This document shows, piece by piece, positions 7,933 to 56,856 of a stretch of 64,000 nt of DNA (the first letter of the stretch is position 1; every line of letters begins with the position of its first letter). The notes under the pieces are model-generated. The model did not search any database. It had not been told where the DNA came from and saw only the letters and a program-made list of their open reading frames with translations. The stretch comes from Escherichia phage AV117. The translations under genes were made by a program, and so were the position numbers. Location of the stretch: sequence record OR352947.1; one strand, given 5' to 3'.

Positions 7933-8745
7933 ATGATCAAAGAACAACTTTTGAAAGAAGCTCAAAACATCGAGACTTCAGTTGCTCTTAATAGTGTTTT
8001 CGAATCAGTAGAACTGTCTCCGGACGTTAAAGCTAATTTCAGCACTGTATTCGAAGCCACCGTTAAGCAGGAAGCAGTCAAACTGGCTGAATCTCATATC
8101 AAAGCCATCGCCGAAAAGGCCGAAGAAGAAGTTGAAAAGGCCAAAGAAGATGCTGAAGAGAAAGCTGATAAAAAATTGGCTGAACAAGCTTCTAAATTCC
8201 TAGACCATCTTGCAAAAGAATGGCTCGCAGAAAACCAAATCGCAGTTGATAAAGGCATTAAAGCTGATTTGTTCGAATCCATGCTTGGTGGTCTGAAAGA
8301 ACTGTTTGTTGAACATAACGTTGTTGTTCCAGAAGAATCTGTAGATGTTGTAGCAGAAATGGAAGAAGAGCTGGCCGAACATAAAGAAGAAACCGCTCGT
8401 TTGTTCGAAGAAGTTACCAAACGTGATGCATATATCAATTACGTTCAGCGTGAAACCGCTATTAATGAAAGCGTAAAAGACCTGACTGAATCTCAGAAAG
8501 AAAAAGTTATTGGCCTGGTTGAAGGTATGGATTATTCTGACGCATTTGGTACTAAGTTAACTGCTATTGTAGAAATGGTTAAAGGTTCTACTAAAGAAGA
8601 AGCCGCTATTACCGAAAGTATAAATACAGTTGACAATGACGCTGCCGGTCTTAATTTTGTTGCCGAAGCAGTTGACACTACCACAACTCAGGTAGAACAG
8701 AATTCTAATGTAAGTTTATATGCGAAAGTCGCATCTCGTTTCTAA
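7933..8745 (+). CDS. 22: prohead core scaffold protein
   Basis: 270 aa, E/K-rich coiled-coil-like, T4 gp22 position. Confidence 0.88.
   Translation: MIKEQLLKEAQNIETSVALNSVFESVELSPDVKANFSTVFEATVKQEAVKLAESHIKAIAEKAEEEVEKAKEDAEEKADKKLAEQASKFLDHLAKEWLAENQIAVDKGIKADLFESMLGGLKELFVEHNVVVPEESVDVVAEMEEELAEHKEETARLFEEVTKRDAYINYVQRETAINESVKDLTESQKEKVIGLVEGMDYSDAFGTKLTAIVEMVKGSTKEEAAITESINTVDNDAAGLNFVAEAVDTTTTQVEQNSNVSLYAKVASRF
8619..8626 (+). promoter_or_regulatory. candidate late promoter for gene 23 inside the 3' end of gene 22
   Basis: exact TATAAATA about 140 nt upstream of the gene 23 ATG; none closer. Confidence 0.4.
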
Positions 8746-8762: not shown

Positions 8763-10331
8763 ATGACTACTATCAAAACTAAAGCTCAGCTCGTAGACAA
8801 ATGGAAAGAACTGCTGGAAGGTGAAGGCCTGCCGGAAATCGCTAATAGCAAGCAGGCTATTATCGCTAAAATCTTCGAAAACCAGGAAAAAGATTTCGAA
8901 GTATCCCCTGAATATAAAGACGAGAAAATCGCTCAGGCATTTGGTTCTTTCTTGACCGAAGCTGAAATTGGTGGTGACCACGGTTATAATGCTCAGAACA
9001 TCGCAGCAGGTCAAACCTCTGGTGCAGTAACCCAGATCGGGCCGGCAGTTATGGGTATGGTTCGTCGTGCTATTCCTAATCTGATCGCTTTTGATATTTG
9101 TGGTGTTCAGCCTATGAACAGCCCTACCGGTCAGGTATTTGCTCTCCGTGCGGTATATGGTAAAGACCCTATCGCTGCTGGCGCTAAAGAAGCTTTCCAT
9201 CCGATGTATGCTCCAGATGCAATGTTCTCTGGTCAGGGTGCTGCTAAGAAATTCCCAGCTCTGGCTGCTGACACTACTACTGTTGTAGGTGATATCTATA
9301 CTCACTTCTTCCAAGAAACTGGTACTGTATATCTGCAAGCTTCTGCTGTCGTAACACTTGATTCTGGTGCAACCGATGCAGCTAAATTAGATGCAGAAGT
9401 TAAGAAACAAATGGAAGCTGGTGCACTGGTAGAAATCGCTGAAGGTATGGCTACTTCTATCGCTGAACTTCAGGAAGGTTTCAACGGTTCTACCGACAAC
9501 CCATGGAACGAAATGGGCTTCCGTATCGATAAACAAGTTATTGAAGCTAAATCTCGCCAGCTGAAAGCTGCTTACTCTATCGAATTAGCACAAGACCTCC
9601 GTGCAGTACACGGTATGGATGCTGATGCTGAACTGAGCGGTATTCTGGCTACAGAAATTATGCTAGAAATCAACCGTGAAGTTGTTGATTGGATTAACTA
9701 CTCAGCACAGGTTGGTAAATCTGGTATGACCCTGACTCCGGGTTCTAAAGCCGGTGTATTTGACTTCCAGGACCCGATTGATATCCGTGGTGCTCGTTGG
9801 GCCGGTGAAAGCTTTAAATCTCTGTTGTTCCAGATTGATAAAGAAGCAGTTGAAATTGCTCGTCAAACCGGTCGTGGTGAAGGTAACTTCATTATCGCTT
9901 CCCGTAACGTAGTTAACGTACTGGCTTCAGTTGATACTGGTATTTCTTACGCTGCACAGGGTCTGGCTTCTGGTTTTAATACCGACACTACTAAGTCTGT
10001 ATTTGCCGGTGTACTTGGTGGTAAATACCGTGTATACATCGACCAGTATGCTAAACAGGATTACTTCACCGTTGGTTACAAAGGCGCTAACGAAATGGAT
10101 GCAGGTATTTACTATGCTCCTTACGTTGCACTTACCCCACTGCGTGGTTCCGATCCTAAGAACTTCCAGCCGGTAATGGGCTTTAAAACTCGTTACGGTA
10201 TCGGTGTTAACCCGTTTGCTGAAAGTTCCCTGCAGGCTCCAGGTGCTCGCATCCAGTCCGGTATGCCGTCTATCCTGAACAGCCTTGGTAAGAACGCTTA
10301 CTTCCGCCGTGTATATGTAAAAGGCATCTAA
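8763..10331 (+). CDS. 23: major capsid protein
   Basis: 522 aa, T4 gp23 length and synteny; followed by strong hairpin terminator. Confidence 0.96.
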   Translation: MTTIKTKAQLVDKWKELLEGEGLPEIANSKQAIIAKIFENQEKDFEVSPEYKDEKIAQAFGSFLTEAEIGGDHGYNAQNIAAGQTSGAVTQIGPAVMGMVRRAIPNLIAFDICGVQPMNSPTGQVFALRAVYGKDPIAAGAKEAFHPMYAPDAMFSGQGAAKKFPALAADTTTVVGDIYTHFFQETGTVYLQASAVVTLDSGATDAAKLDAEVKKQMEAGALVEIAEGMATSIAELQEGFNGSTDNPWNEMGFRIDKQVIEAKSRQLKAAYSIELAQDLRAVHGMDADAELSGILATEIMLEINREVVDWINYSAQVGKSGMTLTPGSKAGVFDFQDPIDIRGARWAGESFKSLLFQIDKEAVEIARQTGRGEGNFIIASRNVVNVLASVDTGISYAAQGLASGFNTDTTKSVFAGVLGGKYRVYIDQYAKQDYFTVGYKGANEMDAGIYYAPYVALTPLRGSDPKNFQPVMGFKTRYGIGVNPFAESSLQAPGARIQSGMPSILNSLGKNAYFRRVYVKGI

Positions 10332-10355
10332 TCTTAATTGATTAAATCTTATTTT

Positions 10356-10379
10356 GGGAGACTTCGGTCTCCCATTTTT
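10356..10379 (+). terminator. rho-independent terminator after gene 23
   Basis: GGGAGAC-UUCG-GUCUCCC then AUUUUUG. Confidence 0.8.
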
Positions 10380-10383
10380 GGTT

Positions 10384-10653
10384 TTATTTCTGTGCAATTT
10401 CGATGTAAGTTTTCAAAATATTTTGCCAATTAGGCATACCTTCTTGGACATATGCCGGAGAACCATCTTTGTTTTTGAATGACGCAAGTTTATCAGTGGC
10501 CCAATAACCTTTAGCTCGAGCTTCGGAATCAACTTTCATCCATACTTTGTTGAAGGCATTACCATTAACTTTTGCACCATATTTTTCTACTAACTTAACT
10601 GCTTCAGCTTCCAGAACTTTTAAAGTATCTCGTAAGAAACGTGCTTTAGTCAT
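10384..10653 (-). CDS. hypothetical protein, early-type gene at the T4 segD locus
   Basis: 89 aa ORF antisense to the late genes; GAGGAG RBS; GTTTAC/TACTAT promoter-like motifs upstream; no GIY-YIG or HNH motif. Confidence 0.6.
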   Translation of the reverse strand: MTKARFLRDTLKVLEAEAVKLVEKYGAKVNGNAFNKVWMKVDSEARAKGYWATDKLASFKNKDGSPAYVQEGMPNWQNILKTYIEIAQK

Positions 10654-10683
10654 TTTGTTTACTCCTCTGTAGTTGATAAGTCT

Positions 10684-10713
10684 ATAGTATCACATACCAA
10701 ATACGTTGTAAAC
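10684..10713 (-). promoter_or_regulatory. sigma70/T4-early-like promoter for the 10384..10653 gene
   Basis: minus-strand GTTTAC, 18-nt spacer, TACTAT, about 30 nt upstream of the GAGGAG RBS. Confidence 0.45.
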
Positions 10714-10719
10714 AATCTT

Positions 10720-10727
10720 TATAAATA
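10720..10727 (+). promoter_or_regulatory. late promoter motif upstream of gene 24
   Basis: exact TATAAATA about 30 nt before the ATG. Confidence 0.6.
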
Positions 10728-10754
10728 ATCTATATCACATAAGGAAAAAATGCA

Positions 10755-12038
10755 ATGAGTAAAATCCAAAAATTATTGCGTGAATCTACAACGTCTACTA
10801 GCAACTCAATTGGTCGCCCAAATCTCGTTGCTTTGACTCGCGCTACGACTAAATTAATATATTCTGACATTGTAGCAACACAAAGAACTAATCAACCTGT
10901 TGCTGCTTTTTATGGTATCAAATATCTTAACCCAGATAATGAATTCACATTTAAAACTGGTGCTACTTATGCGGGTGAAGTTGGATATGTAGACCGAGAA
11001 AAAATTACTGAGCTCACAGAAGAATCAAAAGTCACACTAAATAAAGGCGATTTTTTCAAATATAATAATATCGTCTATAAAGTGTTAGAAGATACACCAT
11101 TTGCAGATATTCAAGAAAGTGATCTAGAATTAGCTCTTCAGATTGCAGTCGTTCATTTAAAGGTACGGTTATTTTCAGATGCAGCGGTAACAAGCAAATT
11201 TGAAAGCTCTGATAGCGAAATTTCTGATGCAAGATTCCAGATTAATAAATGGCAAACTTCAGTCAAATCTCGTAAACTTAAAACTGGTCTCACGGTTGAA
11301 TTAGCGCAAGATTTGGAAGCGAATGGATTTGATGCCCCTAACTTCTTAGAAGATTTGCTTGCTACTGAAATGGCTGATGAAATTAATAAAGATATTCTTC
11401 AGTCTTTAATTACTGTATCGAAACGTTATAAAGTTACTGGAATTACTGACACCGGATTTATTGACTTGAGCTATGCATCCGCTCCAGAAGCAGGTCGTTC
11501 ATTATATCGAATGGTGTGTGAAATGGTATCACACATTCAAAAAGAGACAACTTATACTGCAACGTTTTGTGTAGCCTCAGCTCGTGCAGCTGCTATTCTT
11601 GCTGCTTCTGGTTGGTTAAAACATAAGCCAGAAGATGACAAGTATCTTTCACAAAATGCTTATGGATTCTTGGCAAATGGATTACCTCTTTACTGCGATA
11701 CCAACAGTCCGTTAGATTATGTTATTGTGGGTGTTGTAGAAAATATCGGCGAAAAAGAAATTGTAGGGTCCATCTTTTATGCTCCATACACTGAAGGAGT
11801 AGATTTAGATGACCCAGAACACGTCGGTGCTTTTAAAGTTGTAGTTGATCCAGAAAGCTTGCAACCGTCTATCGGATTATTGGTTAGATATGCTTTATCA
11901 GCAAATCCTTACACAGTAGCAAAAGACGAAAAAGAAGCGAGAATAATTGATGGTGGGGACATGGATAAAATGGCAGGACGTTCAGACTTGTCTGTTTTAC
12001 TCGGTGTTAAATTGCCTAAAATTATTATAGATGAATAA
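10755..12038 (+). CDS. 24: capsid vertex protein
   Basis: 427 aa, T4 gp24 length, TATAAATA upstream. Confidence 0.93.
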   Translation: MSKIQKLLRESTTSTSNSIGRPNLVALTRATTKLIYSDIVATQRTNQPVAAFYGIKYLNPDNEFTFKTGATYAGEVGYVDREKITELTEESKVTLNKGDFFKYNNIVYKVLEDTPFADIQESDLELALQIAVVHLKVRLFSDAAVTSKFESSDSEISDARFQINKWQTSVKSRKLKTGLTVELAQDLEANGFDAPNFLEDLLATEMADEINKDILQSLITVSKRYKVTGITDTGFIDLSYASAPEAGRSLYRMVCEMVSHIQKETTYTATFCVASARAAAILAASGWLKHKPEDDKYLSQNAYGFLANGLPLYCDTNSPLDYVIVGVVENIGEKEIVGSIFYAPYTEGVDLDDPEHVGAFKVVVDPESLQPSIGLLVRYALSANPYTVAKDEKEARIIDGGDMDKMAGRSDLSVLLGVKLPKIIIDE

Positions 12039-12072: not shown

Positions 12073-13071
12073 TTATGATGCTAATTCAATCCATGCTGGA
12101 CGCAGAACATCTTGCACCATTCGGACTAATTCTTTCTTAACAAGATTCGGATTATCAGATGACGTTAATACAATACCTTCACGAGAAGTTTCTTCCAGAA
12201 TATCTTGAACAGTCAATCCTACCACTTTGCCAAAATCTTTTGGCGTTACGGTCCCAATCTTAGAAATCACATTATTAACACGATTTAATGTAACATAACA
12301 AGCTAGAACATCAAGCAAGTTTTTGTCATTTTCGGTTAATGGAACCTGAGTTTTAATAGGCTTATCGGACTTTTTCTTTTCACTGAATTTAGAGTTCTTG
12401 CACTTAATAGCTACACGAGTACCGTTTGGCAACCATTTAGGGAAACAAGGCTTCAGAACATAACCTTCTGCTGTATTATCACCAATAACATTAGCATCAA
12501 ATACACAATTATTTGCTTCTACAAGATCTTCTGACGCAGTAGCATTATAAGCGGCTAAGACGGAATCAAGGTCGTTTGGAATCGTGATAAGAGCATCGAA
12601 TGTTCCACGACCGAGCATTGGTGCCATTTTAAAACCGAATTCATTACAGAAATCTTGCATTTCGTAATCGGTCAAATACGTATTATCACCACTTTCTGTA
12701 TTGATAAGGATATCGAACACATAAAAATCTTTTTCACCGTAGTCAACACCTTTCTGGATTCCACCACCAGCGAATTCACCGAATACTTGATATGATACGG
12801 CTCGAGCTGTGTACATGAATTCCTGAACGGCTTTAATAGCTTTATCATACTTCTTGAGTACGATTTCATAGCCATAAAAATCTTCTGCTGGAAGAATAGG
12901 GCCTGTGCGCTTGGCGCATGTGACGTTGTCACGTTCAATTATTAACGAGAAGTTAGTCCCATGGATTTTCTCACGTGCTACCCAAACACCAGTAGTCAAA
13001 CCATTAGTGTAGAGTTTTTCAATAAACTTAGAGTTGTAGTGGTTTTCAAGACTGTTGTATTTCTTAAACAT
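12073..13071 (-). CDS. rnlB: RNA ligase 2
   Basis: 332 aa; N-terminus [21 protein letters not shown] and adenylylation motif KIHGTN. Confidence 0.95.
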
Positions 13072-33436: not shown

Positions 33437-33460
33437 ACAAAAGGGAGACCGAAGTCTCCC
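33437..33460 (-). terminator. terminator after the 59-aa small gene
   Basis: minus-sense GGGAGAC-UUCG-GUCUCCC then UUUUG. Confidence 0.65.
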
Positions 33461-48504: not shown

Positions 48505-48527
48505 CAAAAGGGAGACCGAAGTCTCCC
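48505..48527 (-). terminator. gene 32 terminator (C(UUCG)G tetraloop hairpin)
   Basis: minus-sense GGGAGAC-UUCG-GUCUCCC then UUUUG, directly after the gene 32 stop. Confidence 0.85.
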
Positions 48528-48533
48528 AATTTA

Positions 48534-51711: not shown

Positions 51712-51776
51712 ATGAACCTCTTGTTCAGTTAGTCAACTTGACTATAGTAACATACTCATTTGAAAGCGTAAACTGG

Positions 51777-51784
51777 TATAAATA
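51777..51784 (+). promoter_or_regulatory. late promoter motif upstream of gene 34
   Basis: exact TATAAATA about 30 nt before the ATG. Confidence 0.6.
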
Positions 51785-56826: not shown

Positions 56827-56831
56827 ATTTA

Positions 56832-56855
56832 GGGAGACTTCGGTCTCCCATTTTT
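56832..56855 (+). terminator. terminator after gene 35
   Basis: GGGAGAC-UUCG-GUCUCCC then AUUUUUG; same 25-nt sequence as after gene 23. Confidence 0.8.
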
Positions 56856-56856
56856 G

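Follow-up and report, generated by a model that had tools for sequence, protein, structure and literature searches.

Phage T4 carries the homing endonuclease gene segD between its two major late capsid genes, 23 and 24. The corresponding interval of Escherichia phage AV117 holds a different and much smaller open reading frame (ORF) on the strand opposite to the capsid genes, which raises the questions of whether this ORF is a real gene, how it is expressed from within a late structural block, and what its product does. The window, i.e., the whole 64,000-nt stretch of AV117 DNA that was analyzed (OR352947.1), belongs to a Mosigvirus, an RB69-like T-even phage. Positions 10300-10760 share 99.3-99.8% identity with the best 30 of the 144 records matched by megablast; matching records include GADS24, SF, APCEc01 and the BASEL phage ChristianSchoenbein.

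The gene order at the locus is given in Table 1. An earlier note, made from the DNA letters alone, had placed an 89-aa ORF on the opposite strand between genes 23 and 24, and this ORF is indeed present. Inspection of the T4 locus likewise agreed with the note's statement that the T4 slot is filled by segD, which also lies antisense. The AV117 cassette is bounded on the left by the terminator hairpin of gene 23 and on the right by the late promoter box of gene 24. One hairpin is common to the ORF and gene 23 and forms the converging end of the cassette. Downstream of the ORF stop codon, this hairpin has no U-tract on the minus strand in AV117; in phage VR20, a hairpin followed by a T-run terminator is present on the ORF strand.

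Table 1. Features of the gene 23-24 region of AV117 (positions refer to the 64,000-nt window).
Feature	Positions	Strand	Remarks
Gene 22	7933-8745	plus	
Gene 23	8763-10331	plus	
Intrinsic terminator hairpin of gene 23, TGGGAGAC-TTCG-GTCTCCCA then T-run	10355-10374	plus	Terminator scan; annotated terminator in phage G53
89-aa ORF	10384-10653	minus	ATG start at 10653
Shine-Dalgarno sequence GAGGAG	10662-10667	minus	8 nt before ATG; GGAG kept in all homologous loci
Extended -10 element TGa-TACTAT	10684-10692	minus	TACTAT 10689..10684, TGa 10692..10690; conserved as TGnTAYTAT
-35 element GTTTACA	10707-10713	minus	GTTTAC 10713..10708
Late promoter box TATAAATA of gene 24	10720-10727	plus	27 nt before gene 24 ATG (10755); invariant in nine-locus alignment
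Gene 24	10755-12038	plus	
rnlB	12073-13071	minus	

Two observations concern the elements that flank the ORF. The gene 23 hairpin (GGGAGAC-TTCG-GTCTCCC plus flanks; original at 10351-10380) has near-exact copies at 56827-56856, 48510-48529 (inverted) and 33443-33460, and many megablast matches show a second place because this hairpin recurs in the window. In addition, two tandem gene 24 paralogs are present in Gaprivervirus, Dhakavirus and related metagenomic loci (L002, L003, L009, L015), as compared with one in the window, T4 and RB69.

The small ORF is a genuine protein-coding gene, and there is hardly any room for doubt on this point. It matches the phrog_6003 HMM over its full length (residues 1-89 against profile positions 1-90 of 90, E 2.1e-45) and is a member of this family with no difference noted; phrog_6003 has no assigned function, and membership therefore gives no mechanism. 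With tblastn, about 120 Mosigvirus records were seen to encode the protein at 95% identity or higher, labeled as hypothetical, and the gene is already annotated in this way in more than 200 GenBank phage genomes. The BASEL phages Bas46 and Bas47 are both carriers. At only 30-38% identity, homologs in Gaprivervirus VR20, Dhakavirus QL01 and phage 04086 are found at the same place on the same antisense strand, and synteny is also kept in three metagenomic T-even lineages, at 62-70% and 34% identity. Purifying selection on the ORF is demonstrated, at the level of codon substitution, by dN/dS values of 0.07-0.14 (Nei-Gojobori, pairs with unsaturated synonymous sites); for the saturated pair of the window and the P0005 contig, pN is 0.21 and pS 0.78.

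The 89-aa product has a computed mass of 10.1 kDa, in agreement with the figure of about 10 kDa in the earlier note. The description of the protein as mixed-charge did not hold, since it is net basic (net charge +6, pI 9.6). This basic character extends across the family, with a pI of 9.2-9.9 in 17 of 18 members despite identities of about 30%.

The gene is in all likelihood transcribed from an early promoter. Both the GAGGAG ribosome-binding site and the T4-early-like promoter (GTTTAC, 18-nt spacer, TACTAT) that had been proposed were found, the former 8 nt upstream of the ATG. The 18-nt spacer is counted from GTTTAC, and the promoter can equally be written as TTTACA, 17 nt and TACTAT with the extended -10 element TGa. 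A transcription start is predicted near position 10677, which would give a 5' UTR of about 24 nt. T4 early promoters have been described as composites of UP, -35, TGn and -10 elements (PMC2988021), and the ORF promoter matches this T4-type definition, including the A/T-rich upstream region.

A search of the 64-kb window for GTTTAC-N17-19-TANNAT returned 13 sites, every one on the minus strand, against a chance expectation of 0.68; none of 100 shuffled sequences reached this number. All 13 sites precede an ATG-initiated ORF of 65-374 aa, and an SD-like motif is present at 12 of them. The distance from site to ATG is 24-41 nt in 12 cases and 88 nt in the remaining one, and the 30 nt of the ORF studied here is typical. 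These sites, which run from 10684 to 62627 and of which many combine TGn with TACTAT, also amount to a ready-made early-promoter map of AV117.

Alignment of the upstream region from nine loci provides further evidence. Little or no variation is seen in the -35 element, the G of TGn or the -10 element, while the spacer and the 5' UTR are free to diverge. This conservation of promoter elements amid divergent spacers is a phylogenetic footprint. A middle promoter was considered and ruled out by the absence of a MotA box, there being no TGCTT at -30 in the upstream sequence. A promoter scan of the copy in Acinetobacter phage ABPH49 returned nothing informative. We infer early timing in AV117 from the promoter class and from homology with T4 segD. 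Literature searches found no transcriptome of a Mosigvirus and, for the small ORF in any phage of this genus, no transcript, protein, essentiality, function or phenotype data.

The gene 24 late promoter lies directly beside this early promoter. Its TATAAATA box stands at the distance expected of a T4 late promoter, about 20-30 nt ahead of the late gene. The earlier note had described the two promoters as overlapping in opposite orientation, and this claim stands in part. The polymerase binding sites share DNA, because the UP-element zone of the early promoter (-40 to -60) contains the late box, but the core elements do not overlap: six bp separate the end of the early -35 element (10713) from the start of the late box (10720). 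The further statement that transcripts of the two classes would converge within one 60-bp stretch has to be abandoned, as the promoters are back-to-back and divergent. The two promoters would be used at different times of infection. A second back-to-back late/early pair occurs at 51744-51784, with TATAAATA on the plus strand at 51777 and GTTTAC-18-TACTAT on the minus strand (51773..51744), and a 305-aa minus-strand ORF lies downstream of the latter.

The 23-24 intergenic locus was then compared across T4-like genomes, a check that the note itself had suggested; the comparison found a real, conserved ORF and a cargo that varies by phage. In T2, the gap measures 83 bp, the TATAAATA box is 17 bp from the gene 23 hairpin, and there is neither an early promoter nor an ORF; promoter and ORF thus come and go as one cassette. 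Among the sampled rows, coverage of the T4 23-24 region is only about 35% for T2, for many other Tequatroviruses and for Klebsiella phages, which corresponds to the empty site. Only 53 of 921 matching phage records cover at least 80% of this region, and it is this coverage that marks them as carriers of segD. The slot is therefore seen in several states: empty (T2), with the ORF (Mosigvirus, Dhakavirus, Gaprivervirus), with the ORF plus segD in some of these, and with segD alone (T4). What the comparison reveals is a conserved early-promoter slot with variable cargo inside the late capsid operon.

The T4 segD locus resembles that of AV117 in its slot, its antisense orientation and its dispensable cargo, and also in its promoter arrangement, with a late TATAAATA box back-to-back with (G/A)TTTACA-17-TGnTAYTAT. 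Upstream of T4 segD, the homologous module reads TATTTATAAA-gtt-ATTTACA-17-TGaTATTAT. The two loci differ in that the AV117 cargo is unrelated, being 89 aa long and without GIY-YIG, and the two genes stand in tandem in some relatives. T4 segD has been classed as 'early-RNA_middle-Protein', and mass spectrometry picks up SegD from the earliest time points onward (PMC9697503, supplements), whereas a 2010 review of T4 mobile elements could identify no segD-specific promoter and held segD transcripts to be probably vanishingly low (PMC2988022). The conserved module is probably the missing promoter for early segD expression in T4, and the promoter slot would offer a simple account of why segD RNA and protein are both detected early though no promoter had been found. 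A minor point concerns the annotated start of T4 SegD (L005 6222-6233), which precedes by three codons the start that the Dhakavirus-type ortholog shares (M4 of T4). Use of this second ATG would place the GGAG 11 nt instead of 2 nt upstream, and would thus remove the RBS-spacing oddity noted in PMC2988022.

Phages with both genes are informative about the history of the slot. LF82-7 and 04086 both have, 3 nt after the small ORF, the gene for a SegD ortholog of 57% identity to T4 SegD, and this gene has no SD sequence of its own. SegD of this Dhakavirus type was present in at least 8 sampled records, with matches of at least 80% identity in 38 records. LF82-7 is 95-98% identical to the window except for one stretch (L008 2994-3926) that begins at the RBS and includes all of segD; this stretch is foreign and of Dhakavirus type. 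The cassette junctions fall exactly at the RBS and after segD, so that the part exchanged lies between the RBS and the terminator. In sequence, this block looks like the pattern expected of flanking-allele replacement driven by a homing endonuclease. In 04086 (L004 2771-3442), the 223-aa SegD ortholog is unannotated in GenBank, and the adjoining major head protein CDS is annotated in truncated form.

Because segD lies behind the same module in T4, and the ORF plus segD lie behind it in some Dhakaviruses and Mosigviruses, the slot can be viewed as an early-expression site in which the small ORF is the resident. The simplest history that these alignments suggest has the small ORF and its promoter as residents and segD as the later insertion: segD would have inserted behind the ORF and borrowed its promoter, and T4 would have kept only the promoter and segD.

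The reverse relationship, in which the small ORF is part of the segD element or serves it, was also weighed. The ORF would then be a landing pad with a promoter, or a partner or regulator of the nuclease, and in AV117 a remnant left after segD loss. The tandem arrangement in LF82-7 and 04086, where segD follows at 3 nt without its own SD, would fit such a role, as would the exchange of ORF and segD as one block in LF82-7, the position of T4 segD behind the same promoter, and the joint lack of promoter, ORF and segD in T2. However, most carriers have no segD (about 120 Mosigvirus records, VR20, QL01 and the metagenomic lineages), and in them the ORF is under strong purifying selection. The V5-like homologs have no adjoining nuclease, and the ORF has no sequence relation to SegD. 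A role in the service of segD is therefore improbable, although it is the alternative that survives best.

The ORF is not a fragment of a homing endonuclease. The claim that it lacks any GIY-YIG or HNH signature was upheld in Pfam, where neither was matched up to E 10, while T4 SegD itself, used as a positive control, matches SegE_GIY-YIG. The family profile aligned to T4 SegD with an hhalign probability of 2%. Since there is no GIY-YIG or HNH match and the hhalign value against SegD is this low, a degenerate homing endonuclease was rejected.

By its distribution, the small ORF is very probably an accessory gene. None of the tblastn matches listed is a Tequatrovirus record, and the ORF is missing from the Tequatroviruses examined, of which T4 holds segD only in the slot and T2 nothing. 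In the RB69 reference genome, two frameshifts (+1 and -1) break the ORF, which is annotated there as the tiny ORF188c and ORF189c, and the copies in mogra and 310Ecol104PP are truncated. The moron-like accessory character suggested earlier thus gains support, with an empty 83-bp gap in T2 and most Tequatroviruses and broken copies in RB69 and a few others. Mismatches are also clustered around codons 19-24 of the RB69 reference copy (L006 9292-9532), which represents either a real pseudogene or old sequencing errors.

Like morons, the cassette has its own promoter, is inserted between a terminator and the promoter of the next gene, and is present or absent with a clean empty site. Unlike morons, it is found in a virulent phage, and it appears to have no dedicated terminator in AV117, where the hairpin after the stop codon carries no U-tract on the ORF strand. 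As AV117 is virulent, the ORF would be expressed in lytic infection, not from a prophage. T4-type early genes (PMC2988021) provide a second comparison. The ORF shares with them promoter architecture, strand, SD spacing, small size and dispensability, but it is isolated in a late structural block instead of an early cluster, and it has no T4 ortholog.

The sensitive profile search and the structure prediction that had been recommended were both performed; the former gave no informative match and the latter a confident model. There was no significant match in Pfam, only a sub-threshold one to DUF4859 (PF16151), which was rejected because it scored 17.9 bits against a gathering cut-off of 22.6 and appeared in only 3 of 15 family members. 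NCBIfam gave no match, PADLOC, searched for defense systems, gave none either, and a sequence profile search of the PDB returned nothing below E = 0.06. Rfam, searched over 10200-10900, produced only sub-threshold chance matches. Scans of viral contigs with the two most distant family members found nothing.

The AlphaFold2 model, built from a 15-sequence alignment, has a mean pLDDT of 93. It predicts a helix at residues 3-25, a second helix at 31-48, a beta hairpin at 52-60 and 66-70, and a final helix at 76-88. The BFVD model of a family member of 31% identity superposes on it with a TM score of 0.85. Every lineage keeps, with few or no exceptions, N30-G31-N32 in the loop that joins the first two helices, as well as N35, A45 and Q70; A33, W51 and K62 are invariant among T-even members only. 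No informative structural neighbor of the predicted fold was found among Pfam, PDB and BFVD matches. In the model, the product of the ORF is thus a compact, confidently predicted fold without neighbors. This fold and the family-wide basic charge make the protein a reasonable candidate for host-takeover and anti-defense screens.

The best explanation for the locus, and a reasonably likely one, is that of a self-contained early cassette, placed antisense between the gene 23 terminator and the gene 24 late promoter, that would encode a dispensable, non-catalytic host binder. Transcription would start near 10677 from a strong sigma-70 promoter with the T4 early architecture (A/T-rich upstream, GTTTACA, TGn, TACTAT), and GAGGAG would drive translation of the 89-aa, 10-kDa basic protein. 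The small basic protein may then bind a host macromolecule, either nucleic acid or an acidic protein, early in infection and without catalysis, from which a function in host takeover or counter-defense would follow. This mechanistic step, from an early accessory protein to a non-catalytic host binder active in takeover or counter-defense, is put forward tentatively. The anti-defense role raised in the note may apply, in so far as the protein has the generic profile of one that is small, early, dispensable and restricted to phages.

We infer such a binder from the size of the protein, its conserved basic charge, the lack of catalytic motifs and its genomic context. Its small size and its shortage of conserved polar residues speak against an obvious enzyme, and the conserved basic charge is a weak pointer to nucleic-acid binding. 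The most distant homologs come from V5-like phages, namely Acinetobacter phage ABPH49 and two contigs from metagenomes, where they are embedded in long runs of small, uncharacterized ORFs on one strand, far from capsid genes. Such small-ORF arrays are a typical setting of early host-takeover and accessory genes. It is the combination of small size with few conserved polar residues, of basic charge throughout the family and of this V5-like array context that suggests the binder reading.

A role linked to the capsid is somewhat less credible than one linked to segD, although three genera and several metagenomic lineages keep the ORF at this one position between genes 23 and 24, which points toward such a role. 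The protein would in this case be a regulator or chaperone of gp23 and gp24, or would control the flanking late genes; the early promoter and the late promoter of gene 24 occupy some of the same DNA, and a basic protein could bind DNA or RNA. Its early-type promoter and opposite strand argue otherwise, and the same capsid is built in T2 and most Tequatroviruses, where the slot is empty, and in T4, where it holds only segD. Moreover, RB69 is viable with a broken copy, and the distant V5-like homologs are far from capsid genes. The weakest proposal, in which an early antisense transcript into gene 23 would act on late mRNA or on the occupancy of promoters, with the ORF a mere bystander, draws on the missing minus-strand U-tract in AV117, which makes read-through antisense to gene 23 possible, and on the DNA shared by the early and late promoters, but is highly improbable against the protein-level selection (dN/dS 0.07-0.14, with SD, start codon and frame kept at 30% identity, and a confident fold), the hairpin and T-run terminator on the ORF strand of VR20, and the lack of any Rfam match.

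A broader reading has two separate parts. In the first, the neighborless fold would be a new early counter-defense or host-takeover factor that binds host nucleic acid or an immune protein. In the second, its promoter would be the missing segD promoter, and segD would have invaded the slot and, in T4, replaced the resident gene. Taken as a whole, this reading is unlikely, but the promoter part by itself is probable. Overall, the ORF is an ordinary, annotated, uncharacterized T-even early accessory gene, and what is modestly new is only the account of the segD promoter.

When 1.84 billion representative proteins were searched exhaustively with HMMER, there were 10 matches, namely seven phage family members or fragments, two large repeat proteins and one probable chimeric contig. 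The two repeat proteins, P0022 with Big_2-type repeats and P0024 (metagenomic; bacterial repeat proteins), were matched at profile positions 28-74 and 20-80, respectively. They score only through the sum of 8-11 near-identical repeats that match the hairpin region, some 45 residues long, and a relation to Big_2 or other Ig-like domains was judged spurious. A Big_2 fold was also rejected on the grounds that Pfam gave no Big_2 match and that the AlphaFold2 model is mainly helical, not all-beta. The common pattern of P0022 and P0024, roughly G-x-x-F...W-x-T/S-D...G...V-x-E-G, bears a curious likeness to the hairpin motif that was judged an artifact. Finally, the 90-aa phage protein P0006 carries the JGI name 'NADPH-dependent curcumin reductase CurA', an evident misannotation.
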